Of a stretch of DNA of 64,000 bases, positions 8,689 through 52,630 are shown piece by piece (the stretch's first letter is position 1; the number at the start of each line of letters is the position of its first letter). The notes below the pieces were generated by a model. It was not told the origin of the DNA. It worked only from the letters and a program-made list of their open reading frames with translations, and searched no databases. Where the stretch lies: NCBI GenBank assembly GCA_965197905.1, contig CBDAOB010000005.1, positions 1,344,001 through 1,408,000 of the forward strand, in the 5' to 3' direction. The DNA comes from Candidatus Latescibacterota bacterium. Its GTDB lineage: Bacteria > Latescibacterota > UBA2968 > UBA8231. The translations under genes were made by a program, and so were the position numbers.

Positions 8689-9098
8689 CTAATGTTTTTC
8701 TTGTGATACCACGGTCAACGGCAGCGTCACGTCGCTGCTCGAAAACTGTTCCAGGGTTTCCATCGCGTTCCGCAGGTCATCCGGCACGTCGGCGTAGCGC
8801 AACACCATCTCGTAGGAATCCCACCCACCCAGCTCCTTGATGCGGTCCAGTTCCACGCCGGCTCGCCGCAGCCGCGTCGCCCAGGTATGCCGCATCATGT
8901 GCAGCGTGACCAGTCGATCAAGCCCGAGCTTGGCATCTTCGGATGCTTTGTAGAGCGATTTTTTGATGTCTACTTCGGGGATCACTTTTGCCGATGGGTC
9001 ACTATCATCGGGCCACTGTATGAGCTTGTGGTTGTTTTTGCCGATACGGCGCTTGAAGGAGCGGCCTGGGCGCAGCGAGTCGATGCCATCAAGTGCTA
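8689..9098 (-). pseudogene. Phage-type tyrosine recombinase C-terminal remnant
   Basis: HMMRHTWATRL..LGGW..MVLRY; N-terminal part absent. Confidence 0.85.
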
Positions 9099-9301
9099 GG
9101 AGTGTGGGGTTGGCAGTGCAGCGTCGGCAGGGCGCCGACGCTCAGTGTTTCGCAGACTAACTTGATGACCCGGTGTGTATATAGGGTAGATTGATGATCA
9201 GAGATGTGCCCAATTCTCAATCTTCCGCGTTCACGGACTCTCTCAGTTCCTTCCGTATTCACGCTGCGGCATCGACCTCCATTTACCCAATAGGTTTATC
9301 C

Positions 9302-9427
9302 GCCCAACGCAGCATTCACCTGCGGCCAGATTCGCGGTCTTCTTTGAGCAACCGATCCGATCTGTCGAACCATCGTGTTGGTCTGGTGAACTTGTGCAAG
9401 GCCCGTCAGGTGCAATGCATGTTATGC
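9302..9427 (-). other. attC site (126 bp)
   Basis: Minus: GCATAAC ATGCATTGCACCTGACGG ... CCGCAGGTGAATGCTGC GTTGGGC; 1 bp after the kinase stop codon. Confidence 0.9.
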
Positions 9428-9428
9428 T

Positions 9429-11531
9429 TCATTTCTGTGTCCTCTGTCTATCTGTTGGCTCTTTGACATCCCCGCCGGCCATCACATTCAGGTCACTCAA
9501 CAGTCGTGGATACTCCTCCAGCGTTGCCGGCAGTTTCGCCATATCAAACATGCTGGCCTGGGTCGCCAGCTTCTCTGCCCACGTCGACAGTGGGACATAC
9601 CCAGACCTGTGTGCCTCTTCCTGCATCCGACTCGCGAACAGCTCGATGTCGTTGATCGTCAGTGTGGCACTGATCTCTGTCCACGTCTCCCTCTGCGATT
9701 CTACGAAACGAAGGAACTGGGGTAACTCAGCGCGTTCGGATACCGACAATTGGTCGGCAGACCAACTCGGTCCTGTCTCCGCGACTGTCGTCGCCATCTC
9801 GGCAGCTTGCTCGTGCGGCAGGAACTTCATCAGGGCAGCCACCAATCCGGCCCGGCTGACGGGCTTCGTGAGGAAGTCGTCACATATCTCCCGCAACTGT
9901 TCTTCCTCCTCCTTCATGGCCGAAGCTGTCACAGCAATAACAGGAACATGGGAAGATGCCGGGTCATCCTTCAGGTGCCGTGTCAATTTCATTCCGTCCA
10001 TCGCAGGCATCCGTAAATCCGTGAGGACTACGCTGGGAGCCTGGGCACGGACCGCATCGAGTGCCTCGTTCCCATCACCGGCCTCGACAACTTCGAACTC
10101 ATAATCGGAGAGATAGGTCTTAATCAGCAGCCGGTTATTTGGCACGTCGTCGACCACAAGAATCCTGGCCGGATCAAAGGATACCTCCGGTACGCTCTCG
10201 TCCGCACTGCAAGCGGCAACATCCGCCTCCGAAGCCACGGCGATTCCGTCGAGCACAATGGAGAAGGTGCTACCGACGCCCAACTGGCTGCTGAGAGTGA
10301 TGTCTCCCCCCATCATCTGGCACAAACGCTTCGAGATGGACAGCCCCAGCCCCGTGCCACCGAACTTTGCCGCGCTCTGGCCTTTGGTCTGTTCGAAGGC
10401 GCCAAAGACTTTACCCAGTTGATCGTCGGGGATTCCTATGCCGGTGTCGGTTACGTCGAAACGAAGATCGACCGCGTCATCACCCGAGGGTGATCCTGAG
10501 GCGATCAGTTTAACGTGTCCCTTGTCGGTGAACTTGATGGCATTGCCGATCAGATTGATCACGGACTGTCGCAGACGCAGCTCATCGAGCACAACACCAG
10601 CAGGGAAATCGTCGGTAACCTCAACGAGAAACTCGATCCCCTTCTCTTCGGCCTTCTGCACAAAGATCTGTGCCATATCCCGCGCGATCGCGGCCGCGTC
10701 ACACGGTCCGAACTCCAGTTCCAGTTTTCCGGCTTCCACCTTGGACAGATCGAGGATGTCGTTGATGAGTCCAAGAAGAGACTTACCGCTGGTTCTGATC
10801 GCATCGAGGAATTCTCGTTGCTGTCCCTCCCTTATGGAACTCGTAAGGATCTCCGAGAAACCGAGAATCGCGTTCATGGGTGTACGGATCTCGTGGGACA
10901 TGCTGGCGAGGAATACGCTCTTTGCCTGGTTCGCTTCTTCGGCAGCTGCTTTGGCTGTGGCCAGTTCATCCATCGTCTTCGTCAAGGCACCGATCAATTT
11001 CCCCAACGTGAACACTACAATGGTGCACAGAACCGCGAAGCCCAATACGGTCACGATCCATGCGAGGCTGGATCTGACATAGGTACTGGGTTCGACGACG
11101 AACGACATGTCACCCGCAACGACAAGGAAGGCGACGACGGCGATCGAAAGACCCCCCGTCACGGCGATAGCGATGCCGAGCCTCAGCCCGAAGAAGATCG
11201 TGGCAAGTATGGTGGTAAGGGCGATGGCACTGATGCCGACCGGGCCAAAGGAGGCCAGACCGCCGATGCCCAGAACGAGAAAGAGTGATGTCAGGAACAC
11301 GGTCTTGAGGGTGTGAGGCACCCGCTTGCGTAGGACAGCGATCGCTACAACGAACAGATAGGCGATCACATGCAGATACATGACTGGCTGCCAGCCGATC
11401 TCCGTCGACCGAGCCAGAGAAGCAACGACCGCAGGCAATGAAGAAACAGAAAGCACGATGTAGGCTACGTTGACGATCTTTTCCTGAATCGCCTGCAATC
11501 CACGATCACTCGGGATCATGCGGACCTCCAT
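9429..11531 (-). CDS. Membrane hybrid sensor histidine kinase/response regulator (cassette-borne)
   Basis: N-terminal TM helices, FLASMSHEIRTPMN, NAIKFT, GGTGLGL, REC domain (VVDD, TDLRMP, KP). Confidence 0.93.
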   Translation of the reverse strand: MEVRMIPSDRGLQAIQEKIVNVAYIVLSVSSLPAVVASLARSTEIGWQPVMYLHVIAYLFVVAIAVLRKRVPHTLKTVFLTSLFLVLGIGGLASFGPVGISAIALTTILATIFFGLRLGIAIAVTGGLSIAVVAFLVVAGDMSFVVEPSTYVRSSLAWIVTVLGFAVLCTIVVFTLGKLIGALTKTMDELATAKAAAEEANQAKSVFLASMSHEIRTPMNAILGFSEILTSSIREGQQREFLDAIRTSGKSLLGLINDILDLSKVEAGKLELEFGPCDAAAIARDMAQIFVQKAEEKGIEFLVEVTDDFPAGVVLDELRLRQSVINLIGNAIKFTDKGHVKLIASGSPSGDDAVDLRFDVTDTGIGIPDDQLGKVFGAFEQTKGQSAAKFGGTGLGLSISKRLCQMMGGDITLSSQLGVGSTFSIVLDGIAVASEADVAACSADESVPEVSFDPARILVVDDVPNNRLLIKTYLSDYEFEVVEAGDGNEALDAVRAQAPSVVLTDLRMPAMDGMKLTRHLKDDPASSHVPVIAVTASAMKEEEEQLREICDDFLTKPVSRAGLVAALMKFLPHEQAAEMATTVAETGPSWSADQLSVSERAELPQFLRFVESQRETWTEISATLTINDIELFASRMQEEAHRSGYVPLSTWAEKLATQASMFDMAKLPATLEEYPRLLSDLNVMAGGDVKEPTDRQRTQK

Positions 11532-11722
11532 TCATCGATTAAAACGTGCAAGGCCCGCTCATTTGCCCATTCTTCCTCCCAATTGGCCCCAACACTGGCA
11601 GCCGGTGGGCGTATCCGACGTCAGGTACTGCTTCGAGCATGTCCACACCCTGATTGCTTTTCAGTGGTCGCTATGACCATTTCCGGTATCTGCATAGAGA
11701 CAGTAAGGCGGTGCCTGTGACC

Positions 11723-11848
11723 GCATAACACAGGGCTGACCTGCGGGCGGAGCTGGCGGCACTCAGTCACGCCAATCCAGCCCGGCGAATAGGCAATCCA
11801 ACTAGCTGGGCCAGCAGTGAAGTCCGTCAGGTCCAGCGCATGTTATAC
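11723..11848 (-). other. attC site (126 bp)
   Basis: Minus: GTATAAC ATGCGCTGGACCTGACGG ... CCGCAGGTCAGCCCTGT GTTATGC; the higA TAA lies inside R''. Confidence 0.92.
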
Positions 11849-12136
11849 AGTGGTAACATCCACCTTCTTGACCTTCTTGAGATTTACGCTTCTACGTGCG
11901 TGCCAAAGATCGTACTGGTCCTGCATACTCAGCCAACTCTCGGGTGAACGACCTAAGCCCTTCGATAATCGCAGTGCCATCTCTGGTGACACGTTGCTCT
12001 GCCCGTTCAACAGGCGATTCAGTGTAGACGGCGATACGCCCAGGCTATTTGCAACCTTCCGTACACTAATGTCATAAGGGGTTAGGTAGATCTCTCGAAT
12101 AAACTCACCCGGATGCGGCGGATTGTGCATTCTCAT
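11843..12136 (-). CDS. higA: HigA antitoxin
   Basis: MHNPPHPGEFI..SPEMALRLSK..SPESWL.MQ..YDLW. Confidence 0.93.
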   Translation of the reverse strand: MRMHNPPHPGEFIREIYLTPYDISVRKVANSLGVSPSTLNRLLNGQSNVSPEMALRLSKGLGRSPESWLSMQDQYDLWHARRSVNLKKVKKVDVTTV

Positions 12137-12414
12137 CAGTGATAATCCTCGTAGTTGACTACGTAAGCATTGCCTTCGCGAAACTCGAACGTGAGGCGCC
12201 AATTTCCGCTCACAGTGATTGCCCAGAGGCCCTTGCGGGCTCCTCTAAGCCTATGGAGACGAAACCCTGGAATATCCATGTCATCAATCCGTGCAGCTGT
12301 ATCCAGCGCCACCAGTTGTAGTCGCAGACGCTTTCGATGAGCGGATTGAATCCCCGCCGCGTTCCCAGTTTCGTAGAAGCGTCGTAATCCCCTATGCCTA
12401 AAGGAGTTGATCAT
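12136..12414 (-). CDS. higB: HigB (RelE-like) toxin
   Basis: MINSFRHRGLRRFYETG..FRLH.L.G..WAITVSGNWRLTF..YEDYH; stop overlaps the higA start. Confidence 0.93.
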   Translation of the reverse strand: MINSFRHRGLRRFYETGNAAGIQSAHRKRLRLQLVALDTAARIDDMDIPGFRLHRLRGARKGLWAITVSGNWRLTFEFREGNAYVVNYEDYH

Positions 12415-12421
12415 TTCATGA

Positions 12422-12450
12422 AATATAGCATGTTGCGCATCGCGCTACAA
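12422..12450 (-). promoter_or_regulatory. higBA sigma70 promoter with overlapping operator palindrome
   Basis: TTGTAG-17 nt-TATATT, overlapped by TGTAGCGC-GAT-GCGCAACA. Confidence 0.7.
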
Positions 12451-12466
12451 GACTCCGCCCTCGCCC

Positions 12467-12593
12467 GTATAACGAAAGAATCACCTGCGGGGAGCGTCAC
12501 CGATCGCTCTTCCACTCGCTGATCCAACCCGGCGAAACAGCCACTCGGTCAAGTACCATTACAAGATGCCGTCAAGTAAATTCTCTGTTATAG
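12467..12593 (-). other. attC site (127 bp)
   Basis: Minus: CTATAAC AGAGAATTTACTTGACGG ... CCGCAGGTGATTCTTTC GTTATAC. Confidence 0.85.
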
Positions 12594-12651
12594 GTAACTC
12601 TTTTGCTCAGTTTGTCCTCGCGTCCAGCATCACTGCGGAGGCCAAGCGTAT

Positions 12652-13209
12652 TTATAAGCCTTGGACAACCCGCTGTTCCCAGGGCCTCCTGATGAGCGTG
12701 TACCAAAGCCGATCTTCTGACCGTCGCTCTAGAAGGAAACCGCACTTTTCCATGACTCGCATGGATGTCACGTTGTCCGATTTACAGGAAGCTGAAAACG
12801 CCGCTATGTTTTTGCTCAGAAAAGCGGCCTCAATCATCGCCCTGACGGCCTCGGTTGCGTAACCGTTGCCCCAGAACTTTCTCCGCAGAAACCAACCACA
12901 GCCCCCATGTTGTGGACGTGTAATTGTGTACCCTACGTCACCAATCATCTCCTGCGTATCGTTTAGTACGACTGCGAAGAAATACCGAACCCGCGGTTCA
13001 GAATTCTGTTGGTCGATAGCATCCCGCAAGCTAGCTTCTGCCTCTGGACGGGTTCTAGGCAGCCAAGACACGTGCTTAGCCACATCAGGGTCAGTTTGCC
13101 AATCAACGTAGGAACCGATATCGTTGGCTGTGTGCTCGCGGATGTGGACTCGTTCGCCTATCATTGGCTCCGGATCGCGTTGCGAGCGCTCATTCTGTCG
13201 ATGTTTCAA
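12652..13209 (-). CDS. RimJ/RimL-type GNAT acetyltransferase (cassette-borne)
   Basis: GWFL..FWGNGYATEA..N..S.RVMEKCGF. Confidence 0.9.
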   Translation of the reverse strand: MKHRQNERSQRDPEPMIGERVHIREHTANDIGSYVDWQTDPDVAKHVSWLPRTRPEAEASLRDAIDQQNSEPRVRYFFAVVLNDTQEMIGDVGYTITRPQHGGCGWFLRRKFWGNGYATEAVRAMIEAAFLSKNIAAFSASCKSDNVTSMRVMEKCGFLLERRSEDRLWYTLIRRPWEQRVVQGL

Positions 13210-13216
13210 TTCCTAC

Positions 13217-13343
13217 GTATAACACAGGCATCACCCGCGGGCGGCATAATTGACCAGCTCAGCAGACACGATTAATCCCGGCGAAATACTAATCCGGTAA
13301 AGATTCACCGGTAAGAGTCCGTCAGGTGCATGCCATGTTAGGC
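13217..13343 (-). other. attC site (127 bp)
   Basis: Minus: GCCTAAC ATGGCATGCACCTGACGG ... CCGCGGGTGATGCCTGT GTTATAC. Confidence 0.92.
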
Positions 13344-13351
13344 TACAGGCT

Positions 13352-14595
13352 CTATCCTATCTTCTTAAGGAGATCGTTGAGCCCCGGATCAGAGTGCCGC
13401 ACCCGAAAGTGCTCCTGTCCCTCCGCGGGAACTGTCTCGATGACGACATCTCTCATTCCTCGCACTCCGTGGCCATCGCGGTAGACATCAGCAGAGTCAA
13501 ATGGCTGCTCCTTGACGATGAACGCGAGCCTGGTCAAATCCGCGGTTTGAAAATCGATGTACTCCGACTTCGCGTCGAGCCACTTGATCGGAAGACAGTC
13601 GTGACGATGTCCCTTCTCTATGACCAACCAGTCTCCCTCTGGCATCCCCGGAGCTGGAGGCACCGGCGATGAAGTCATCGAGTACAGAGACCGGACCTCC
13701 TTCACTTCAGGTCTCTGGGCGAGGATAGCCTTTGCCAGCGCGAAGTCATTACCAGATGCGTACAAGAACCTGCTGGAGCGTAACGTCTGGAGCTCATTAA
13801 GAGCCCTGCAGTAGTTCTCGTCGACAAGAAGAGGCGTGCCATCGTGGATACTCTGGTGTAGGCGGCACATGAAGGGATCTGACGGCGCCGGTCTCGGATG
13901 GGCGTCATCGATAGCCTCCGCCAAGATCTCTCGCACACTTGGGCAGTACAGGGCCAGACAGAGCCGCGGGGATATCGGGTAGTAGATCTCTGTTCCCGGG
14001 GCATCCAGGCCCAATCTCCCATATGGAAACGTATTGTGCATCACCACTGGGTTGTCCGAAACCCACAAGCTGGCTGACTCGAAATGAGGAGGACGGGATC
14101 CTTGCGCCGCATTATCTCGGCAAACCTGTCCAACTCGAAGAGCTGACCGAGGGAGATTCGCCGAGCGTCGGCGTCATCAATCACACGCGTCGGCTCGAAC
14201 TCAAGAGACTCCATCCACTCAGAGAGTTGCTTGGAGAACTCTATGGGCGAAGTTCTGATGATTCTAGTCCTAACCAGCTGGCACGCCAGGAGGACTGGGA
14301 GGTCTCGAAGGACATCTTCACTTACGCCGAGGAGTGTCCGGGTTTCGGTAAGTGCTCTGATTGCGGCGGCGAGTCGGCTGTCGATCTCCTGAAAGAGAAA
14401 TTCGTAGTTGATCTCCCGCTGTCCGATGATTACCCGATTGAAGTCGCGTTCAGCTGCCGCATCGCCGACGGCCACTTTGAACTGCTGGGCTGTCTTCTTG
14501 TCAAAGGCGAATACCTGATCCCCCCCGGGAACGAGGGCAAAGTTCCGGAGTACTGCCCGCGGAACGTAGTGGTGTTTTCTAGCCTCCTGAGGCAC
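13352..14595 (-). pseudogene. DUF4238-like protein, frameshifted near 14065 (cassette-borne)
   Basis: KHHYVPR..LRNF in one frame; SDNPVV and YYPISPRLCL in the overlapping frame. Confidence 0.75.
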
Positions 14596-14608
14596 TATCT
14601 CTCACGTC

Positions 14609-14728
14609 GCCTAACACAGTGATGAGCCGCGCAGACTCACCGCAAGCCCAGAAACACAGAATGGGCAGGTGAACGCGCTCAAGATCTCAAGATCACTGTC
14701 CGATCGTCGGCTCGATCACATGTTATGC
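14609..14728 (-). other. attC site (120 bp)
   Basis: Minus: GCATAAC ATGTGATCGAGCCGACG ... CGCGGCTCATCACTGT GTTAGGC. Confidence 0.9.
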
Positions 14729-14856
14729 ATTTCCAATGGTACAATCCGTTTCAGGAAATTTTCACTTACCGATCAGTATCCGGACACAACGAGTAGCTGT
14801 GGCCACCTATGCTGCTGCATCGGCCATACCTTCACCAGGGGCCGGACGCGCGGCCG

Positions 14857-16923
14857 CTACCTTCCGAGCACTCCTTCCAGCGTCGGCACCTGACCTGCGC
14901 CTACCGGCACCGTGATGCTCGAGCCTTCGAAGTCATCCCCGATCGGCTCATATCGACCGCCGAGGTGCTCGGCCAGGAAGATCTCCGTCACCGCGTTGAA
15001 AGACAAGCGGTTCTCGGGCCTTGCGAAGCCGTGGCCCTCATCCGGGTAGATGACGTACGTAACTGGAATTCCTTTCTCCTGCATGGCGTCGACGATCTGG
15101 TCTGATTCGCTCTGCTTGACGCGCGGATCATTCGCTCCCTGACCGATCAGCAGGGGCTTCTGTATTCTCTCGACATAGGTCAGTGGCGAACGGGCCCTGA
15201 GGAACTCCCGCCCCTCCTCGGTGCGATGGTCCCCTACGCGAGTAGTGAAAAGGTTGATCATCGGCTCCCAGTAGGGAGGGATCGTCTCGAGGAGCGTCCG
15301 AAGATTGGACGGCCCCACGATATCAACGCCGCAGGCGAAGACGTCGGGTGTGAAGGTGACACCCACTAGGGTGGCGTACCCTCCGTAACTTCCCCCCATG
15401 ATCGCGATTCGCTCTACGTCAGCGATCTTCTCATCGATCAACCACTGCACGGCGTCGATCAGGTCGTCGTGCATCTTTCCCGCCCACTCGAGGTTGCTGG
15501 CGTTGATGAATTGTTTACCGAGGCCCGTGGAGCCGCGGTAGTTGACACTCAGCACCGCGTAACCGCGGCTGGCAAGCCACTGATGACGCGAGTGATAGCC
15601 CCATGAGTCTCGTCCCCAAGGGCCTCCGTGGACGAAGAGGACGGTGGGTAGTGGCGTCTGGGAGCGGCCGTCACGCTCCGGATCGGTCCAGGACGGGAGC
15701 GTCAGATAGCTGACCAGATCGAGTCCGTCGCGGGATTTGATGACGACCGGGTGCATGCTCGAGAGTGCCACCCCGACCAGTTCCTCCCGGTTAGTGAATA
15801 GAAACACCGCCTGCCGCTTGGCGCGATCGTAGAGGAAATAGCGAACTGGACCATCGTCGACGACGAACGAGATCGTCCAGGCATCGTCGTCGAGCGACCG
15901 GCTCGTCACTTTCATGTCTCCGTCAGCTAGGGTCTCCAGATAGTCGATATCGCTACGAATGGACTCGTCGAGGAGCGTCCACTCGATGCGTGTATAGTTG
16001 CTCGAAGCGGCCTGGATCGTCTTTTCTGTCGGATGTATCATGATGCCGTCTATATCTGCCCGGGGATCGGTGAAGACCACTTCCTTGTCCCCGGTCCGTA
16101 GATCGACCGCCGTCAGCGCGGCCGTGTTCCGTCCGCGGCTGTCGATCATGTAGAGCACCTGCCCACTCTTGTCGAAGGCGACCGGCCACGTCGTGAGCAC
16201 ATCCTCCATCGGAATCTTGTCGAACGAAACCCATCCGTCGCTGCCATCCGGCGTGAAGATCTCGTTGCCTCCCTCTGGCGTCATCTGCAGGGCATAGCGG
16301 ATGTTGTAGTCATCGTCGGTCTGGAAGCCGAGGAAGCGATCGTTCTGCTGGATCAGCTCCATGTCGCCGGTCAAGATGTTCAGGCGGTAGAGATCATGAA
16401 AACGCGGATTGCGTTTGTTCAATCCGATCAAGATCTCGTCGGCAAACTTGTGACTGACCTCCTGGATCTGAGCCGTCGGCCTCATCTTGTCGCCGCTCGG
16501 GAGGGTCATAGTCTCGCCATCTGGCCCGATGATCTCCTCGAACGGGGTCAGGTTTCGGTCTACCTTCGACTTGACATCGACTGCGTGCACCTGCCAGTTC
16601 TCATCCCCTCCCAGATCCTGCAAATAGAGGATGTGGTCGTTGGTGTGCGCCCAGAAGTATGTGCGAATGCCCCGCAATGTATCCTTCGTCACTGAGACGG
16701 CTTCCCCTGGATTGTTGGCATTTGCCACCCATACGTTCATCACACCGTCCAGCGGCGCCAGATAGCTGACCCTGATGCCGTCCGGGCTGATCTTCAGCGA
16801 AGTCCGGTCCGGGTTACCGAAGAGAATCTGGCGGCTGATCAGCGGCGTGCTCTCGTCAGCTGTGGCTCCACGCAGAGCGGTCCCAAGGACGAAGAGAAGG
16901 AAAGTGGAGATAGCTATGCGCAT
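14857..16923 (-). CDS. Secreted S9 family peptidase (cassette-borne)
   Basis: Signal peptide, VHGGPW, GGSYGG, GANDPRV, DEGHG. Confidence 0.93.
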
Positions 16924-17045
16924 TGCATCCTCCGGTGGAAAAGAGTGTATGAGCCCGAGCACTCGGCTGACCTGCTGTGCACGGAGTCTCCCTGTTGTGG
17001 ATATGGCCCCAGGCGCTATCTGAAGTCGGCCTCCGTAATCTCAAC

Positions 17046-17170
17046 GGATAACGCGGGCATGACCTGAGGCCAGGGCCGTGTACCCCTGAACAGCATCCAA
17101 TGGCCCGGCAAATCACTATCGGGGCGCCCGTTCTACCGCTAGAGTCCATCAGGTCAATGCCTTGTTATAC
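17046..17170 (-). other. attC site (125 bp)
   Basis: Minus: GTATAAC AAGGCATTGACCTGATGG ... CCTCAGGTCATGCCCGC GTTATCC. Confidence 0.88.
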
Positions 17171-17308
17171 GAATCCTGAGCTAATTTATCCGTCCGAAGT
17201 ACTGTTCAGGTACGGTCTAGCGATGAACACAAGTCAATCAAGACCCGTTCAACCAAGACAGAAATGTCCAAAACCAAGTGACTTCCAGTATAGGGCACCA
17301 TTCATCCG

Positions 17309-18271
17309 TCAGTTCGCAATGGATCTTTGAATCTCGCCCTCTATGATGTCACGGTGATTGTAGAACCAATCCATGTGTTCCAAGACAGGGACTTCGTCTT
17401 TGATCTCCCTCTCGTCAGGAAAGCAGGAGGCCAACATACATAACCAGAGATGATCTCGCTCAAGTGAAGAGAATGGGTTCGCCAAGTGGTATTCCCCCAG
17501 GAATCTCCCAAAGTGAGAAAGCCAATATCGGCGTTGGTCATCTTGATCGCCTCCGATTGGGAGTCCATTGCGCCCTTTGTATCGGACCATCGACGTCAGC
17601 GCTGTGACAACATCCAATAGTCTCTGTCCGTGGCAAATGTGATCGCAATCGATGAACCCTCGGAACTGATCGCCTACCAATCTGACATTGCCTCTGTGAA
17701 CGTCCAGAAAGATGACCTGAACGGGCAGTTGATCCGAAAGACGTTGCAATGGGCTTTCAAGCAACTGAAGAGTCCTCTCAACCTTAGACAGATCACCATC
17801 CGACAGGTACGGCAACCATTGCGGCGCATACTCCTCAAACACCATCGTGTGCATGTCTTCTTTCCATGTATTTACCGGTCCGTCAAACCCACGTAGGCAA
17901 GCGTGTAACCTGGCGTAGGCTCTCCCGAGGCTTCGGTAGGCTCCTGCTGACTCTGGTGCATAGAAGTCAGTCTCATCCCCTTCGATGTAGGGCATCAGAA
18001 CGAATACGCTCTCGCTAGATTGTGTGTAGAAGGAACCTTCAATTGTTGCCAGAAGATACGCGATGGGAAGCCCGGCCTCGTGCACATGTCGGGTCACCCT
18101 GAACTGCGCTTCAGTTCGCGCCAGCACCTCTGGCGTACCGACGTTCTTGAGAACGTAATGCTCTCCGTCACGGGTGTGAACGTGATAAATATCCGGCACT
18201 CCATCCAGCTCGACTGAAGAGGCTTCTAACGCCCATGCAGACAGGGATTCCTCAACCTCTTTTGTCACCAT
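17309..18271 (-). CDS. APH / type II homoserine kinase-like phosphotransferase (cassette-borne)
   Basis: YVLK, LGRAYARLH, DVHRGNV and FIDCD motifs. Confidence 0.8.
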   Translation of the reverse strand: MVTKEVEESLSAWALEASSVELDGVPDIYHVHTRDGEHYVLKNVGTPEVLARTEAQFRVTRHVHEAGLPIAYLLATIEGSFYTQSSESVFVLMPYIEGDETDFYAPESAGAYRSLGRAYARLHACLRGFDGPVNTWKEDMHTMVFEEYAPQWLPYLSDGDLSKVERTLQLLESPLQRLSDQLPVQVIFLDVHRGNVRLVGDQFRGFIDCDHICHGQRLLDVVTALTSMVRYKGRNGLPIGGDQDDQRRYWLSHFGRFLGEYHLANPFSSLERDHLWLCMLASCFPDEREIKDEVPVLEHMDWFYNHRDIIEGEIQRSIAN

Positions 18272-18305
18272 CTTTCACCTGACCAGCGAATCCTTCGCAT
18301 TTGGC

Positions 18306-18425
18306 GTATAACGCAGTGTTCAGCTGCGGACAGTCGCACCGATTGCCTCGGTCATCCGATGGGAAAGGCGAAACACCGTCAACTCAGAGTCACCGATCCT
18401 CCGCCAGCTGCAACACATGTTATCG
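18306..18425 (-). other. attC site (120 bp)
   Basis: Minus: CGATAAC ATGTGTTGCAGCTGGCGG ... CCGCAGCTGAACACTGC GTTATAC. Confidence 0.9.
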
Positions 18426-18478
18426 AATCGACCAGCCCTTCTTGTCATCGCCGGGCCATTGGTTCGGCGATGACAGGC

Positions 18479-19378
18479 CTACTTGAGCAGTGCCCGGAGA
18501 CGAACCGTAGCTGCCTTGTTCAGTCCTTTGCCCCGCTTGGTCTGATGTAGCGGTTTGGGTCTAGAGCCATCCTCATCATCAAAATCGTACTCTTTGGCCA
18601 ACTCACCGACAAACAGGATCTGGCCGCTCTTCTTTTTCACCTTGGCATCTGATGCAAGAGCTACAACAGCGCGGCCAACATACCACGGTGACTCTGTGTC
18701 TGTCATGGGTGAGTTGAACCGCATGACCCCCTCGGTGCGCACATAGCCGGGCCACAGGGACACACAACTCACGTCGCTGCTGCGCAGGTCTCGAGCCATG
18801 TCATTCGTCATTTTGTCCACACACAGCTTGGCCGACTGGTAGGCTACACCACCTTGACCGTGGCTGAAACTGTAGAAGGAAATGTTCACGATCAGTCCGT
18901 CTTGGGCTCTCAGCATCAAGGGAACGGCCAGAGAAGTCGCGATGTAACAAGAACGAACTCCCACCTCGAAGACCTCATCCCACTCGCGAACCGGCCTCTC
19001 CCAGAATCGGCCTTGGTAGAACTCGTTTCGGTGAAGGGGCTCATATCCGCCCCACGCATTGTTGACCATGACATCAAGTCGGCCGTACTCGCGGTCGATC
19101 CGATCAAAAACCCTTCGGACTTGGGTGTCACGACGATGGTCGCATCTGCAAACGATGGCCTTGCCGCCGAGAGCCTCGATCTCAGAGGCTGTCGACTGCA
19201 GCGAGCCCCGGAGCGCGACGGGGCCGCTTCCTTCCTTCAACGTTCGTCCCGTCAGATAGACCACGGCTCCAGCTTGGCCGAGAGCCAAGGCGATGCCACG
19301 ACCTACGCCTCTACTGGCGCCGGTTACCAGAGCAATCATACGAGATAGAGATGGGTCCGAGTCGGTCAACATTGCCAC
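18479..19378 (-). CDS. SDR oxidoreductase, DHRS1-like (cassette-borne)
   Basis: VTGASRGVGRG, NNAWGG, YQSAK, SLWPG. Confidence 0.92.
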   Translation of the reverse strand: MAMLTDSDPSLSRMIALVTGASRGVGRGIALALGQAGAVVYLTGRTLKEGSGPVALRGSLQSTASEIEALGGKAIVCRCDHRRDTQVRRVFDRIDREYGRLDVMVNNAWGGYEPLHRNEFYQGRFWERPVREWDEVFEVGVRSCYIATSLAVPLMLRAQDGLIVNISFYSFSHGQGGVAYQSAKLCVDKMTNDMARDLRSSDVSCVSLWPGYVRTEGVMRFNSPMTDTESPWYVGRAVVALASDAKVKKKSGQILFVGELAKEYDFDDEDGSRPKPLHQTKRGKGLNKAATVRLRALLK

Positions 19379-19414
19379 GATCTTGATTCGTCAGGTCTTC
19401 CTACGCGTTCTCAT

Positions 19415-19536
19415 CGATAACGCAAAGATGAGCCGCGACCAGACTCGCCGTTTGCGTTGATTAACCTAATCAGATTTGCGAATCACAGTCCACCGAGATC
19501 CACCGTTGGAATCGTCGGTTCCATCTTATGTTATCA
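19415..19536 (-). other. attC site (122 bp)
   Basis: Minus: TGATAAC ATAAGATGGAACCGACG ... CGCGGCTCATCTTTGC GTTATCG. Confidence 0.87.
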
Positions 19537-19565
19537 CTCACGATCCGATTTTCGGGCATCTCTGA

Positions 19566-20360
19566 CTAACCAGAGATATCACGCTTGTCGTCAGAAAACT
19601 TGAATGCCTTGCCTCCAACGAGTTGGTCGCTGGTGATAGTTGAGCACCAGTGTGTCTCGATGTGCTGCACAACCAAATCTGTACCTTCAAAGTGATCCAT
19701 CTCATATCTATGGAAGGAATCAGTCAAGTCACGGCAGAGTAGTGGTTTCCTACCCAAGTAGACAAGCTGGCGAATTCCAAAGGGACGACCTAGTACACAG
19801 GCGTTTGTATGGACGCCCATGACGATGACATCCTCAATGTCTCGGTGTTCAAGCATATTGAATACCTCTTGGCCGTTATCGCTGATTGCGTCCTCCTCAG
19901 CAATCTTGATCGTATCAATCTGACGGGTCCAGGGGTAATGGTCGGCTGGACAGGCGGGTTCGGATAAGTCGCATGAGCACTCCCCTGGATCAGATGGGAA
20001 GGGCGGCTCCCGTTCCTGATTCCAGTATCTCCCAGTGAACTCCATCGCAGCACTTGCATGCGGTGTCTGCTGGGCCTGCGTGCGTTGTGGTGTATCGGCA
20101 TAAAATGCCATGCAATCACTGGGAGCGTGGATGATCAACACTCCTTCCTCTCGAATGCTATTTATCACCTCGTTCATGCGCGGCGCCATTTCGTCTACAC
20201 GCTTGGCGGCCGAGGTACACCAATGTGTGTCCCACATATCGCAGACGATCGCAGCAGTCTTGCCTGGTTTCCACTCGACCTCATCTATGACAACCTGAGA
20301 GGCTGTGCTATCTTCCTCCAATTGGAGACGATAACGCTTGCGTAAGCTATACCCATTCAT
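19566..20360 (-). CDS. Isochorismatase-family hydrolase (cassette-borne)
   Basis: TAAIVCDMW, IIHAPS, MGVHTNACV, RDLTD. Confidence 0.85.
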   Translation of the reverse strand: MNGYSLRKRYRLQLEEDSTASQVVIDEVEWKPGKTAAIVCDMWDTHWCTSAAKRVDEMAPRMNEVINSIREEGVLIIHAPSDCMAFYADTPQRTQAQQTPHASAAMEFTGRYWNQEREPPFPSDPGECSCDLSEPACPADHYPWTRQIDTIKIAEEDAISDNGQEVFNMLEHRDIEDVIVMGVHTNACVLGRPFGIRQLVYLGRKPLLCRDLTDSFHRYEMDHFEGTDLVVQHIETHWCSTITSDQLVGGKAFKFSDDKRDISG

Positions 20361-20552
20361 TTGAGGAGATCCCCTTGTGATCCAGTGTCTCTAAGTTGGA
20401 TGTGAGACGTCTCCGGTTCAGCACTCAGGTTCATTGTTTTTGATGGTTCGGGGAAACTGCGAATTGAGATGATGGGAGAGCGTCGTCCCGGCACCTCGCT
20501 TTGGTTCCTTGAAGGATGTTCAGTTTCACCAGTCCTGGAGCTCATTCTTGTG

Positions 20553-20625
20553 TGATAACGCCACGCATCAGCGGCGCACAGCGAGCGCAACGAGTAGTGC
20601 GTCCGACTGCATGCGCTTGTTAGAC
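20553..20625 (-). other. attC site (73 bp, canonical geometry)
   Basis: Minus: GTCTAAC AAGCGCATGCAGTCGGACGCAC ... GTGCGCCGCTGATGCGTGGC GTTATCA. Confidence 0.9.
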
Positions 20626-20631
20626 TGTATA

Positions 20632-21654
20632 TCAACCTCCAGCGGTACTCAGCATCGCCCTGGTCTCGTCCGTCAGCCGTATGTGCGGCGGGGACATGCC
20701 CGGCAGCAACACACTCGGGTCGCTCTCCACATGCGCCAGTGGATGGAGCTTTGTGAGCGCCGGGTTCGCAGAGTACTCTTTTTCCTCCCGGGGCTCGTTA
20801 AACCAGCACGGCGAAAACTCCAGAATGCGTTTCTGCCGCTCAGTGAGTTCGGGGTCGTTGGTGTCGTACGCGACGTCGCCGTGATGCATGCCAAAAGGAA
20901 CATACTTGTAGAAGAGCGTGCGACGCTCGCCGCTCGCCGCCCACGGAATTGTACCATGTTTGAGCTTCTCAGTGAACAGAATGCAGTCCCCAGCCTTGGC
21001 CTCGACCCGGTGCACCGGCACATCTTCACCCCAGTTTGGCAGCTGCGATGTCCACTCCGTGTCGCACCAGTTCGGCTTCCAGTCGCCGTCAATGTCCAGC
21101 AGTTTCTGCTCGTTGGCCGGCTTGTGTGTGCCCACAACACACCCAAAGCCCCCGTCATCTGGTCCGACGGTCTTGAGTTCATACACACAGGTGATATGAA
21201 AGCTGCCCGGGCCTCCGTGGAGCGTCCCGCCTTTGTCCTCGCCGTCTGTCGGTTTCCGGCCAGGCTTGTAGTGTATATTGTCGTGATCTAGCCGGAACAA
21301 GGTGCGAAGCTCTGCCGGCATGTGTGCAGGGGCATGGCCCCACGACGGGTCACCGAGAATCTCTTCCAAGATGGGCAGCATGGTCTCGTTGTCGATCAGG
21401 TCCCTGTAGGCTTTGCTCCAGAGCCTTCTTCCCACGTACGTGTTGCCATGCCGATCCGTTGTCTGGTGAGTGTCGCGCCCCCGGATGGAGAAGCGGATCT
21501 TTTTATCGGTGCCGCCCTTAGACCGGATCTCCTCCCGCTCAAGGATGTGCTGATCATATACTTCATTGAGCTCGTCGAGCTGCTGTTGATTGAGCACGTC
21601 GGGCACGACGACATAGCCTTGTCGTGCGAATGTGTCGCGCATCGCGTCGTCCAT
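20632..21654 (-). CDS. Phytanoyl-CoA dioxygenase (PhyH) family protein (cassette-borne)
   Basis: F..QGYVVVPDVL, GTHK, AGDCILF..HG..W..ERRT. Confidence 0.82.
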   Translation of the reverse strand: MDDAMRDTFARQGYVVVPDVLNQQQLDELNEVYDQHILEREEIRSKGGTDKKIRFSIRGRDTHQTTDRHGNTYVGRRLWSKAYRDLIDNETMLPILEEILGDPSWGHAPAHMPAELRTLFRLDHDNIHYKPGRKPTDGEDKGGTLHGGPGSFHITCVYELKTVGPDDGGFGCVVGTHKPANEQKLLDIDGDWKPNWCDTEWTSQLPNWGEDVPVHRVEAKAGDCILFTEKLKHGTIPWAASGERRTLFYKYVPFGMHHGDVAYDTNDPELTERQKRILEFSPCWFNEPREEKEYSANPALTKLHPLAHVESDPSVLLPGMSPPHIRLTDETRAMLSTAGG

Positions 21655-21681
21655 CTTCTAATCTCCTCGACGTGTAAGAAG

Positions 21682-21860
21682 TAAGTACGTGTTCATAAGT
21701 TTGGGTTGATTTTAAGTGATTTGAAAATCGATGCGATATTGCTGACCGTAATGTCTGAGGATGTGCTGTATCGAATCGAGTAAGGCTTTGAAATCCGTGT
21801 ACGCCGCAAAAGGCAACCACTTATACTTTATCCGCCGCCACAGAATCTCAATCTTCTTAG
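21682..21860 (-). mobile_element. IS630-family transposase 3' remnant
   Basis: IEILWRRIKYKWLPF..YGQQYRIDF followed by a terminus ending GTACTTA. Confidence 0.7.
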
Positions 21861-22012
21861 CTTGGGCGGATTGGTTGCTTGTGGTCCCACTGGTAATTTC
21901 GGGAAGCATTCGTGTGATTCTTGGGCATGCTTGGGGTTATGTCCTTTGGGTACCCACGTAACAATTGTTGGTTGCAGAGTTCTGCCTCCAATCTTAATGT
22001 TGCATGCAAGCA

Positions 22013-22235
22013 GTCTAACAATACAGTACGTGGACGTCCTCATTATCTGGCCTTACTTTTCGCCTGCCCCCACTGCGCCGACACCTTCGCCACACCAACT
22101 AAACAGCGTTAACTCCTGCAACGCAAACGAAGTTCGGCGAGGTGAGCCCTGCCAAGCTGCCCACCTCGTCGGCCCCTTTCGCGGCATATCTGATTATTAC
22201 GTGGCAAATTGGGACATTCACATTTAGTCGACGGC
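22013..22235 (-). other. Degenerate long attC (or attI) heading the array
   Basis: R' GTTAGACTG matches the PhyH cassette inverse core at 20619; ATGTGAATGTCC pairs with GGACGTCCACGT, but no intact R''. Confidence 0.55.
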
Positions 22236-22360
22236 GTACACCCTACACCGTCGTTGCCTCCAAATATCAAGGCGATCCGGAAAGCACGATAGCGGCATAA
22301 TGGGGGCGGCACCGCTGCCATCAGGGCTCTCGATGTTACTCACGTCCCGTAGTGCACAGG

Positions 22361-22520
22361 TGAAGTGTACCTGGGCCGCCGTGAACCCAACATCTAGAGC
22401 CCGTCAGGAACCGAAATCCACGCCACACTAGGCGCCGCGCCGCTTCGGCCGCGTCGCGAGCCGCCAAACGAACCGATACATCGCCCAGTTCACGCACCCG
22501 CTGGCTTGCCGCGACTACCA
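22361..22520 (+). mobile_element. IS91/ISCR 3' non-coding remnant
   Basis: Near-identical to 458-608. Confidence 0.75.
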
Positions 22521-22645
22521 ATGGCACGAGGTGAAATTGAGCTTTTGAGATGGCGATTGACAACATTAAGGGGTGGTCGTATAGTCGGTGCGATCCGAGA
22601 ATAATGCGTTTAAGAAAGCACTGAATTCCATCTGGGAAATGTCTT

Positions 22646-24775
22646 TTGGAGGTAACGCAGATGTCGCAACAGAAGCGTCTTGAACACCCCGAGACACCGT
22701 TTCCCGTGGGGGTGGAATACTATAGGGCACCGATCCCCAAGCAGGAGTGCTGGGACGAGGATCTTGCCAGGCTGCGTGCGGCGGGTTTTGGCGTTATACG
22801 CAGCGCTTCCTACTGGAACTGGATGGAGCCTCGACCAGGCCAATACGAGCTTGACGATTTCGATAGGCTGTTCGACTTGGCGAAGAAACACGGATTGTAT
22901 GTATGGTTGGACATCATGCTAAACACTCATGGTGCATGTCCGGAATGGTTGATGAGGGAGTATCCTGACATGCGTATTGTAAACTATCGGGGAGAACCGG
23001 CCCATTCTTATGCTGGTGGGGCAATCCCTCAGGGCGGCATGACGCATTGCTACGACCATCCAGCATGGCGGGAGTACGGGGGAGCTTTGCTCCGGCACAT
23101 TGTGCATCGGTACAAGGATCGGCCCAATCTGCTCATCTGGGGGCTGTGGGATGGCATCCAGCCAGCATCGGCCAAGAACTCGGAGCATTACCCTTGCTAC
23201 TGCGATTACACCATCGCCAAATATAAGGCCTGGCTGAGGGAGCGGTTCACGCTAGATGAGCTAAATGCACGGTTGCTCCGTCGCTACCGCCGCTGGGAGG
23301 ATGTGGAGCCGCCGCGATCCAACCATGCCATAGTAGAGATGCTGCCCTACCGACAGTTCCACTACGAAAATCTGGTAGAGCAGCTCAAGTGGATGGTTAA
23401 GGAGGTGGAGAGTATCGACCCTCATCATGAGATGCGGGCACATTCAACCTCGAGACCCCGGCCCTTTGATGAGCAATGCGCCCGCCACATAGACAGTTGG
23501 GGCATGTCCATGAGTTCCAATGACCTGCTTGCCTCTGAAGACCCTTATAAGATTGCGGAGCGGGTCTTTGCTTTCGATTGGTCGCGCAGCGTGGGGCGCA
23601 ACGGGCGCTGGTGGATCGAGGAGATCTACGCCGGCATGAGTCCCGCCGGAGTGGGCTGGAAGACCAAGCAGTCCGACCCTCGTGAGCTGACCACTTTGCT
23701 TTGGATGTCCCTGGCCGGTGGGGCGGCGGGTGCCATGTTCTGGCAGTACCGGCCCGAATACCTCAGCTTCGAGTCGCCGGGCTTTAACCTGGTGGCCCTG
23801 GACGGTGAGCCAACGCCTCGCTTTGAGGGTGTGGCCCATGCAATCCAGCAGATCAAGGGCCTGAAGGACCACTTGCCCCTGGAGTGCCCTAAGGCAGAGG
23901 TGGGCATTGTTTACCACCCCCAGTCACAGGAGTTGTTTGGCTTCGACGACCAGTGGGGATGGGATGGCGTTAAACGCTATCTGGCCGACTTGCGCGGGGT
24001 GTACCGTACCTTGTGGACCCATGGTATACCTGCTGACGTGGTGACACCTCAGATGGACTGGTCGGGCTACCGGCTGCTGTTCCTACCCAATGTGGCATTG
24101 ATGACAGAGGAGGTGCAGCAACGGATTATGCGTACGCTGAAGGATAGCCCTGAGACCCATCTGGTTGCGGAGGGTAGCTTTGGCATGTACTCCGGCGATG
24201 GACAGTCCAGCTACCACCCGCCCGAAGGGTTTGCACAGCACTTTGGCGTGCGTGTGGCGGACGTCAACCGCGTGACCGAACTTGACATCCAGCAAGGGCA
24301 GAACACGATGGAGACCCCCTACGGCACAGTCACCATTACGACACCCTGTGGATACGCGGTCCTTGAGCCGAGAGGTGGAACCAAGGCCATTGCATCCCTG
24401 GGTACCGACACCGTGGCGGTGCGTACGGCGGACGGCCGTTTCACCTGTTATGGGTTGACCTTCTCCGCGGGATTTGGGGATGTGGGGCTGCCCAAGCTGG
24501 TGCTAGGCCAGGCTAAAGAGTTTGGTATTCAGCCACCCGTGATTGTAGAGGGAGACAGAGTGGTGCCGGTGGTGAGACGCTCTCAGCAGGGTGGCTGGTT
24601 ACTATTCTTGTTCAACATCGAGGACAAAAAGGCTCGGGTGACACTCCGTCCACAGTGGAAGACGAAGAAGGCGCAAGAGTTGCTCAAGGGCTCCACACTC
24701 TCTCTCGCTGATGGTACTTTCAGTCTTACGGTAGAGTCCTGGAGTGTGAGCGTGATTCACTGTGCCGTGGGATGA
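22646..24775 (+). CDS. GH42-like (beta-galactosidase family) protein, copy 1
   Basis: GVEYY, W..MEPRPGQY, CYC, FWQYR and C-terminal trimerisation domain; start may be 22661. Confidence 0.87.
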   Translation: MEVTQMSQQKRLEHPETPFPVGVEYYRAPIPKQECWDEDLARLRAAGFGVIRSASYWNWMEPRPGQYELDDFDRLFDLAKKHGLYVWLDIMLNTHGACPEWLMREYPDMRIVNYRGEPAHSYAGGAIPQGGMTHCYDHPAWREYGGALLRHIVHRYKDRPNLLIWGLWDGIQPASAKNSEHYPCYCDYTIAKYKAWLRERFTLDELNARLLRRYRRWEDVEPPRSNHAIVEMLPYRQFHYENLVEQLKWMVKEVESIDPHHEMRAHSTSRPRPFDEQCARHIDSWGMSMSSNDLLASEDPYKIAERVFAFDWSRSVGRNGRWWIEEIYAGMSPAGVGWKTKQSDPRELTTLLWMSLAGGAAGAMFWQYRPEYLSFESPGFNLVALDGEPTPRFEGVAHAIQQIKGLKDHLPLECPKAEVGIVYHPQSQELFGFDDQWGWDGVKRYLADLRGVYRTLWTHGIPADVVTPQMDWSGYRLLFLPNVALMTEEVQQRIMRTLKDSPETHLVAEGSFGMYSGDGQSSYHPPEGFAQHFGVRVADVNRVTELDIQQGQNTMETPYGTVTITTPCGYAVLEPRGGTKAIASLGTDTVAVRTADGRFTCYGLTFSAGFGDVGLPKLVLGQAKEFGIQPPVIVEGDRVVPVVRRSQQGGWLLFLFNIEDKKARVTLRPQWKTKKAQELLKGSTLSLADGTFSLTVESWSVSVIHCAVG

Positions 24776-24784
24776 CGACATACA

Positions 24785-25199
24785 GGGCAGGATCAGACGC
24801 CCGCAGCTACCTATCGCCGCTCCTGGGCCACATTGTTGGCACGGGTTTTTCGCCTCGAGGTGACAAGGTGTCCGGAATGCGGCGGCCCGATGAGGATCAT
24901 CGCCGCCTTCACCGACCCAACATCGATCCGCCGCTATCTGCACGGCATGGGCCTGCCAGCGCGGGCGCCGCCGATCGCACCCGCACGACCCCAACCGCAG
25001 ACTGAATTCGACTACGCCTGATCCTCTGCGGGCGAGGTATGTCTACAGGCTGCGCAAAAGCGGCGTGCAGGCGCCCGAAGTGGAAGCGATAGCCTACAAG
25101 GAATGAGTAGCAGGCGAAATTTTCCTCCGGGGACTGGGAAGTAACAAAATCATTCAGAGTGTGCTTGCAGGCAGAGGCTGGTAAGGCTTTTCTTTTATT
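24785..25199 (+). mobile_element. IS91/ISCR transposase C-terminal remnant plus downstream end
   Basis: SWATLLARVFRLEVTRCPECGGPMRIIAAFTDP..RAPPIAPAR..FDYA stop at 25021. Confidence 0.85.
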
Positions 25200-25241
25200 G
25201 TTTTGTAGAACGCCCAAATGGGCCGCAGAGGAGGTGTATGG

Positions 25242-52146: not shown

Positions 52147-52193
52147 GTGGGGGGAGCAGGACTCGAACCTGCGAAGGCATAAGTCAGTAGATT
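52147..52193 (-). other. tRNA-Tyr-like 3' half (att remnant)
   Basis: Minus: AATCTACTGACTTATGCCTTCGCAGGTTCGAGTCCTGCTCCCCCCAC (long variable arm, T arm); no anticodon or 5' half. Confidence 0.7.
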
Positions 52194-52266
52194 CTGGCGA
52201 GGAGAACAAAATAGGGCTTGAGAAACGTGAAGAAGACCAAAGACAGACTGACTGTGCTAACTGGTA

Positions 52267-52554: not shown

Positions 52555-52630
52555 TGGAGCCACCCGCCAGAGTCGAACTGGCGACCTACTCATTACGAGT
52601 GAGTTGCTCTACCAACTGAGCTAGGGTGGC
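52555..52630 (-). tRNA. tRNA-Thr(CGT)
   Basis: GCCACCC..ACTCA CTCGTAA TGAGT..GTTCGAC..GGGTGGC TCCA; 76-nt cloverleaf. Confidence 0.97.

Follow-up and report, generated by a model that had tools for sequence, protein, structure and literature searches.

A nine-site cassette array without a neighbouring integrase in a tRNA-Thr island of a Latescibacterota genome, probably the head of a former chromosomal integron

How an array of gene cassettes comes to lie in a chromosome with no integrase gene in sight is the question raised by a 64,000-nt stretch of contig CBDAOB010000005.1 (here C5) of a Latescibacterota genome, called the window below. A preliminary description made from the letters alone had noticed, at 9302-22019, nine imperfect hairpins separating genes on the minus strand, and had read them as attC recombination sites of a CALIN (a cluster of attC sites without an integron integrase), or of an integron whose intI was cut off or lies elsewhere, inside a tRNA island. 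The array itself is a real, ordinary CALIN. Our explanation of its origin, to which we assign a probability of about 0.75, is that it is the head of a former complete chromosomal integron, now reduced to a CALIN that retains a diverged attI and lies in a tRNA-Thr island, sharing the cassette pool of a complete integron on another contig, C3. Coordinates are those of the window unless preceded by a contig (C1-C5) or genome prefix; G000 is this genome.

All nine hairpins are where they had been placed (9302-20625), and the plus strand of the window is the bottom strand of each of them. The sites, recognised by box architecture, fold and covariance model (model R2 for the first), are as follows:

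20553-20625, minus strand: attC 1, short type, 73 bp
19415-19536, minus strand: attC 2
18306-18425, minus strand: attC 3
17046-17170, minus strand: attC 4
14609-14728, minus strand: attC 5
13217-13343, minus strand: attC 6
12467-12593, minus strand: attC 7
11723-11848, minus strand: attC 8
9302-9427, minus strand: attC 9

Read on the minus strand, every site has the same layout: R'' (7 nt), a spacer of 5 nt and L'' (8 nt, with the fourth base extrahelical), followed farther on by L' (7 nt), a spacer of 6 nt and R' (GTT). The sites fold as bottom-strand attC hairpins, the AAC:GTT R box being paired in the minimum-energy structure of all nine and the L boxes in 5-7 of 7 positions, with a probability of the recombinogenic fold (pfold) between 0.0045 and 0.43. 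The unpaired bases reported earlier on the R''/L'' arm occur throughout; the first extrahelical base is C or G in eight sites and A in one, and a second extrahelical T takes the same place in seven. The RYYYAAC...GTT pattern proposed for the sites holds as far as core boxes are concerned (nine of nine), while the strict RYYYAAC motif is matched by only two. The eight long sites are fairly similar (arm identity 0.66) and obtain leave-one-out arm-profile scores of 42-65, versus a best score of 23.3 in two shuffled genomes. The 73-bp attC 1, of a different sequence type, fails this test (-6.8); model R2, whose training set included attC 1, gives it 40 bits. Changes on both sides of a pair were counted in 156 cells over 67 sites, versus 57 after shuffling, in an alignment fitted to the model, which makes the counts lean towards structure. 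The folding energies are unremarkable (z from -0.3 to -3.0, the first site having been trimmed too short in that test), and a structure-only attC scan gave 11 matches in the genome versus 14 in a shuffled one, recovering three of the nine sites. Since neither the scan nor the energies discriminate, the proof lies in the in-register architecture and the chain of core sequences described below, not in stability. An Rfam scan returned no family for the attC sites and matched only tRNA. No tenth site was found in the array with filters off; a candidate at 21956-22138 was rejected for its unpaired spacer, poor core and lack of a covariance-model score.

A cassette is integrated as a circle, so that its R'' complements the core upstream of the cassette and not its own core. 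At the junctions of the window the four variable bases of R'' complement the upstream core in 6/8 cases and their own core in 0/8 (permutation P = 0.00085), which is the footprint of past circle integration; the chain rises to 7/9 when a site at 22013-22019 is counted. In related arrays R'' matches the upstream core at 22/36 junctions and its own at 1/36 (based on 78 of 82 attC-model matches; of 48 junctions, 12 that exceeded 3 kb or had a non-canonical core were left aside). Boxes, fixed 5- and 6-nt spacers, R-box pairing in all sites and the core chain together establish the attC architecture that had been proposed.

A profile search found no intI in the window. The array thus combines two or more attC sites with the lack of any intI nearby, as expected of a CALIN, and lacks the adjoining intI of a complete integron. 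A search of the whole genome, a check suggested in the preliminary description, returned one full IntI over the cut-off, on C3 (366.7 bits). This protein is intact, with the IntI insertion and the catalytic residues and motifs present, is closest to V. cholerae IntI4 among PDB structures, and heads its own array with the same attC families as the window array. Its reading frame (L024:13961-15223) includes some 105 additional codons at its N-terminal end, ahead of the TIGR02249 match, and the orthologous frame in the one-contig sister genome G002 is equally long. The G002 orthologue is 88% identical in nucleotides, and G002 has 21 attC-model matches in several clusters, most of them far from intI. 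Among 31 genomes, the present one included, four have an over-cut-off intI and five have attC-model matches. In the two-contig genome G015 (L041-L045) several attC clusters of the same family were seen, with no over-cut-off intI. Isolated attC sites also occur on C1 and C4 of the genome studied here. Two other integrase genes were considered. One lies just beyond the distal end of the array:

8689-8985, minus strand: C-terminal scrap of a phage-type tyrosine recombinase (PF00589)

A broken intI can be ruled out here, since the scrap reaches 21 bits versus a cut-off of 265 on TIGR02249 and is without the IntI insertion and motifs; it matches a tRNA-island integrase on C4 at 42%. The other, a truncated integrase on C2, was rejected as the array's own because no attC lies near it and no link to the array was seen by eye.

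The two ends of the array bear most directly on its origin:

22013-22019, minus strand: core heptamer GTTAGAC, exact complement of the R'' of cassette 1 and the only such top-strand heptamer in the window
22019-22348, minus strand: putative diverged attI and promoter region, with the crossover after G at 22019 (13/22 attI match, X6 contig)
22349-22522, plus strand: transposase-less 3' end of an IS91/ISCR-type element, at the expected start of intI (repeat copies, ISCR-like neighbours)
9264-9307, minus strand: stub of an aldo-keto reductase cassette, its first 44 bp (the cassette is whole in the C3 integron and also present in G002)

The attI of the lineage and its crossover were defined from three copies: that of the C3 integron and those of the integron and a CALIN of G002. 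Thirteen of the 22 bases before the crossover at 22019 match this attI in register, as well as do 42 of the 188,049 GTT sites of the genome, and R'' matches 22013-22019 at 7/7. No sigma-70 consensus was seen on the minus strand upstream of cassette 1. The upstream 330-380 bp align with attI-intI spacers, with 0, 7 and 9 of 300 shuffles as good. In run X6, one contig agrees with 22015-22378 apart from 9 differences, departs from the window at the core and runs on for 770 letters of other sequence, which is what the same attI with a different first cassette would give. The IS91-type end starts at 22349, close to the position that the start of intI has in the C3 layout. Its repeat copies are found at 458-610 and elsewhere, and other copies directly follow an ISCR-like C-terminal tail and adjoin Y2_Tnp matches. 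One CALIN of G002 has a similar end 1.3 kb from its head, but ends of this type are frequent in these genomes. Both options left open in the preliminary description, an intI elsewhere and an intI cut off, hold: a full IntI is on C3, and the attI-like head is cut by the IS91-type end. That description had noted neither this head nor the cassette stub, nor where cassette 1 came from.

Further attI copies without intI comprise one on C4 (16/22) and two in G002. Around the former (G000:C4:473710-477400, L030), a tRNA-anchored island contains an intact phage-type integrase followed by the attI-like site and one attC cassette. At L034:10300-11410 of G002 an insertion sequence, which we take to be IS1595-like, splits an attI exactly at the core with a short duplication, and copies of it are also present at the head of another CALIN. 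At the other end of the window array, the cassette stub is followed by an 83-bp element (9181-9263) that recurs at 98% in G002 and partly on C3.

These observations lead us to propose that intI of a formerly complete chromosomal integron would have been lost in an IS91-type event, and that the remaining array shares its cassette pool with the C3 integron, whose IntI could excise window cassettes and use the window attI in trans. Several results weigh against this proposal. Array heads without attI reach 9-12 of 22 matches (best of about 55 sites); the 330-bp alignment is beaten by 9/300 shuffles when made with C3 and by 135/300 with the C4 site; no intI remnant lies beside the array head; the X6 evidence consists of one contig each, at a depth of about 2; and no clean cassette-skipping joint was found in contigs of runs X1 and X2, from which rare forms are dropped. 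Taken alone, the sequence case for an attI at 22019 is moderate.

The strongest of the alternatives, which we regard as unlikely, is that the array grew at a secondary, attG-type site through the C3 IntI, its likeness to attI being due to chance or a hot spot and intI never having been adjacent. An IntI in trans is indeed present, the attI match is just 13/22, and insertion at attG has been demonstrated experimentally, according to the available text of 10.1101/2022.09.11.507474. A clean secondary insertion would end in host DNA, however, and this array ends in a cassette stub; the alignment of the upstream region with attI-intI spacers (0/300 and 7/300 shuffles as good) and the recurrence of intI-less attI copies in the genus (two in G002, one on C4) also speak for a former attI. 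A little less probable again is that a rearrangement detached the window array from the array of the C3 integron itself. The attC family and the stub are common to both arrays, and such splitting happens, since G002 holds C3 cassettes 2 Mb from its intI; yet the head of the window array is a diverged attI distinct from that of C3, which retains both its own attI and its first cassette, and none of the nine window genes is in the C3 array. That the hairpins are terminators or repetitive extragenic palindrome (REP)-like repeats between ordinary operon genes, as modest folding energies and large genes with a host-like GC content of 50-59% might suggest, is very improbable, being refuted by the core chain and at odds with the strand-specific extrahelical bases, the fixed 5- and 6-nt spacers, the covariation and the fact that two genomes have the same sites next to a bona fide intI.

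The shared pool is evident from a comparison with relatives. Five cassette blocks of the C3 array recur in G002 at 89-98% nucleotide identity; four of them sit in G002 CALIN clusters, 2 Mb from intI, and two are in swapped order, while G004 has a third order of the shared cassettes. The eight downstream cassettes of the window had no counterpart above about 76% nucleotide identity among the 2 candidates scored per genome in 167 other genomes of the phylum, nor among the 9 candidates scored in each of 30 genomes. A gene order fixed across relatives, which the preliminary description had named, together with sites that fail to fold as attC, as refuting the integron reading, is not what the comparison revealed: the downstream cassettes were not found there, and the shared ones are reordered. 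In runs X1 and X2, which belong to two studies, letters and order are identical to the array where covered; the source sample may be X1 itself. Two joints in X1 contigs, at 9309 and 9312, were set aside because their sides measure only 21-30 nt. One contig of run X6 (a single contig at a depth of about 2) has the start of the higBA cassette behind a different attC.

The array lies in an island anchored by a tRNA gene:

52555-52630, minus strand: tRNA-Thr(CGT), right island anchor (G002 comparison)

In G002 the left and right island flanks are only 88 bp apart at tRNA-Thr(CGT), a nearly empty site, so that about 55 kb including the array (C5:1341477-1396531) constitute an island, as had been surmised. 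The search for a direct repeat of the tRNA 3' end yielded no more than a partial att-like hairpin (78%) at 378-436; this was rejected as the island attL, being located within the island and similar to the end of a different tRNA. No intact island integrase was found inside the island, only the scrap at 8689-8985. The segments 378-445 and about 52150-52200 look like 3' ends of other tRNAs, one of them with an att-type hairpin like that beside tRNA-Thr; these remnants suggest nested island relics.

Many non-cassette modules of the island are found elsewhere in G002 at 93-99% identity and in another order. Comparison of 542-38134 with G002:C1:3446726-3485317 (L057-L060) revealed about a dozen gene-sized modules, 93-99% identical, reordered and reoriented at another chromosomal site; they have no attC at their ends and no common junction motif by eye. 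Next to the array, 22646-27360 holds a tandem pair of GH42 beta-galactosidase genes; the second is in two frames, and an ISCR-like tail (24860-25021) separates the pair.

The cassettes downstream of the first carry the following genes:

19566-20360, minus strand: cassette 2, isochorismatase-like (PF00857, 26.6 bits, just under the Pfam cut-off)
18479-19378, minus strand: cassette 3, short-chain dehydrogenase/reductase (SDR) oxidoreductase (PF00106)
17309-18271, minus strand: cassette 4, APH/homoserine-kinase-like phosphotransferase (PF01636; best NCBIfam match homoserine kinase, below cut-off)
14857-16962, minus strand: cassette 5, S9 peptidase of about 690-700 aa (PF00326)
13352-14595, minus strand: cassette 6, DUF4238 in two overlapping frames, 14041-14595 and 13352-14068 (PF14022 on both)
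12652-13209, minus strand: cassette 7, GNAT acetyltransferase (PF13302)
11843-12414, minus strand: cassette 8, toxin-antitoxin pair higB (12136-12414) and higA (11843-12139) (PF05015; TIGR02607 over cut-off)
9429-11531, minus strand: cassette 9, MASE11 hybrid histidine kinase/receiver of 700 aa (domain search)

Every Pfam-identified reading frame between attC sites is on the minus strand, in agreement with the preliminary description. The metabolic and regulatory genes that it had listed (hybrid kinase, peptidase, SDR, isochorismatase, dioxygenase) were found as well; HigBA, the GNAT acetyltransferase, the split DUF4238 gene and the APH/homoserine-kinase-like phosphotransferase were not in its list. 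The cassettes have a mean length of 1,412 bp, with two near 2.4 kb, and the GC content of their genes is host-like (50-59%). No resistance family exceeded the NCBIfam cut-off among the cassette proteins, and PADLOC gave weak matches only (DUF4238, E 1e-6). The frame break in the DUF4238 gene is present in identical, gap-free letters in runs X1 and X2 and is therefore not an assembly error. By analogy with toxin-antitoxin cassettes elsewhere, the higBA cassette would make losing the distal part of the array costly.

Cassette 1, next to the putative attI, is composite:

20632-21654, minus strand: gene for a PhyH-family dioxygenase, 340 aa (PF05721)
21684-21855, minus strand: 3' tail and right end of an IS630-family element (47-aa tail matching IS630 transposases)
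21856-22012, minus strand: leader of the cassette, source unplaced (no match in searches)

Homologues of the PhyH gene are present in 38 of the 167 other genomes of the phylum, at 69-91% nucleotide identity, and three marine metagenome contigs (L204-L206) carry it at 97.6-98.0% over 1,052 bp, with 18-22 coding differences and flanks of 44-47% GC. A contig beside L206 encodes a LamG-like protein whose C-terminal motif we take to be one known from Poribacteria; a search gave no confirming name. No attC was found at 78 metagenomic homologue loci (64 of them with at least 300 nt downstream), at 29 genomic PhyH loci, in a scan that did detect the window locus, or at 14 wider loci (9 of them PhyH, overlapping the 29). 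Identity to these donor-like genes stops exactly at the stop codon, and R'' follows 6 nt on. The non-cassette copies mostly have a conserved upstream region including a TTGACA box (by eye); cassette 1 retains the ribosome-binding site, and the IS630 tail occupies the place of the promoter. In genomes of genus g18 (L148-L152) the PhyH gene and promoter often occur twice within 1-3 kb, with neighbours differing per genome, as if moved as a gene-sized unit.

High-depth contigs from four runs contain the PhyH gene and the IS630 tail together up to 21855, with 14 differences from the window in 481 nt in X1 and 1 in 255 nt in X6; in X2 the letters past 21855 continue the transposase frame, as read from the loose end of the contig. 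JGI metagenomes gave no match when searched for the exact tail, which is also in none of the 78 metagenomic PhyH loci, so the IS630-PhyH arrangement is known only from the run contigs. This genome has no second copy of the tail. When two G002 arrays were used as queries for further donor-like genes, the matches were dominated by insertion sequence copies.

From these sequence relations cassette 1 appears to be a recent derivative of a free-standing marine PhyH gene with a prior upstream IS630 insertion. The likely order is a free gene, then the IS630 insertion, then capture of the fragment as a cassette, now in the first and newest position. The cassette is thus a candidate for a freshly formed one, and one could tentatively go further and see in it a snapshot of de novo formation, in which a widespread free-standing PhyH gene lost its promoter to IS630 and a fragment, beginning within the transposase and stopping at the stop codon, became linked to an attC and entered position one of an attI served in trans by a distant IntI; we consider this possible, though rather doubtful. 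Alternatively, PhyH could have been inserted into an older cassette, of which 164 bp at the 5' end would be a remnant; no source for these 164 bp was found in the 167 other genomes of the phylum or in plasmids, which counts against formation de novo. So does the behaviour of the free copies, which also vary around the stop codon, making that junction a hot spot anyway; the 98% copies run into a tRNA-like att remnant (by eye), at which ARAGORN recognised no whole tRNA. In addition, the full donor locus did not turn up in the exact tail search of JGI metagenomes.

Reportedly, cassettes may be formed by group IIC-attC introns, a model said to have been put forward by Leon and Roy in 2009. In line with it, the genome has 13 matches to group II intron reverse transcriptases and no more than 6 nt separate the end of cassette 1 from the stop codon; unlike the model, the array contains no reverse transcriptase gene. 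Ten of the 13 matches have identical scores, and one lies about 6 kb left of the island edge. The transposon tail upstream of PhyH fits capture either of DNA or of a read-through transcript. In the portions of the literature available to us, how genes become cassettes is described as largely unknown (PMC5371416) and cassette formation is listed as an open question (PMC8618304).

The best explanation of the array as a whole lies within known biology, since the origins listed for CALINs by Cury et al. (2016, PMC4889954, available portion) cover this case: loss of intI, secondary insertion and rearrangement, with exchange with integrons of the same genome suggested. According to the same portion, half of CALINs are in replicons encoding IntI and 83% have fewer than six attC sites. 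The window array resembles the CALINs described there in its at least two attC sites, lack of a nearby intI, non-resistance cargo, an IntI elsewhere in the genome and insertion sequences at its edge, and differs from most of them in having nine sites, an attI-like head and long sites that are fairly alike. Like the sedentary chromosomal integrons of Vibrio type, as far as described in the consulted parts of PMC5371416 and 10.1101/2024.07.02.601686, it has attC sites of about 120-127 bp, a toxin-antitoxin cassette and mostly promoterless single-gene cassettes; unlike them, its cassettes average 1,412 bp (the median coding sequence there is 362 bp, PMC5371416), and the arrays of this genome are short and scattered over several loci. 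The isolated attC sites on C1 and C4 are reminiscent of the single attC sites lacking integron-integrase (SALIN) and attG insertions treated in the available part of 10.1101/2022.09.11.507474, whereas the window array begins at an attI-like site and ends in a truncated cassette rather than host DNA. The host phylum is outside the list of integron-bearing phyla given in the accessible part of PMC8618304; NCBI labels some of these metagenome-assembled genomes Gemmatimonadetes, a listed phylum. Named FtsA homologues carry the labels Latescibacterota, Handelsmanbacteria or Gemmatimonadetes, which makes Latescibacterota the probable host phylum; an enolase scan of named genomes gave no placement. 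Full-text literature searches found no paper centred on Latescibacterota integrons, and survey tables or supplements may already list some. No described donor-cassette pair was found in the literature searched, subscription journals and bioRxiv supplements being outside its coverage.

Because attI sites without intI recur, with two in each of two genomes, it can be tested directly whether a single integrase serves several platforms. Cassette 1, together with its near-identical free-standing counterpart and its transposon tail, provides junctions that can be checked against DNA-capture and reverse-transcription models; if formation de novo were true, the two would be a donor-cassette pair only about 2% apart. 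Marine Latescibacterota, whose genomes hold several attI satellites each and cassettes that are large and host-like, would then be a place to study the making of cassettes.

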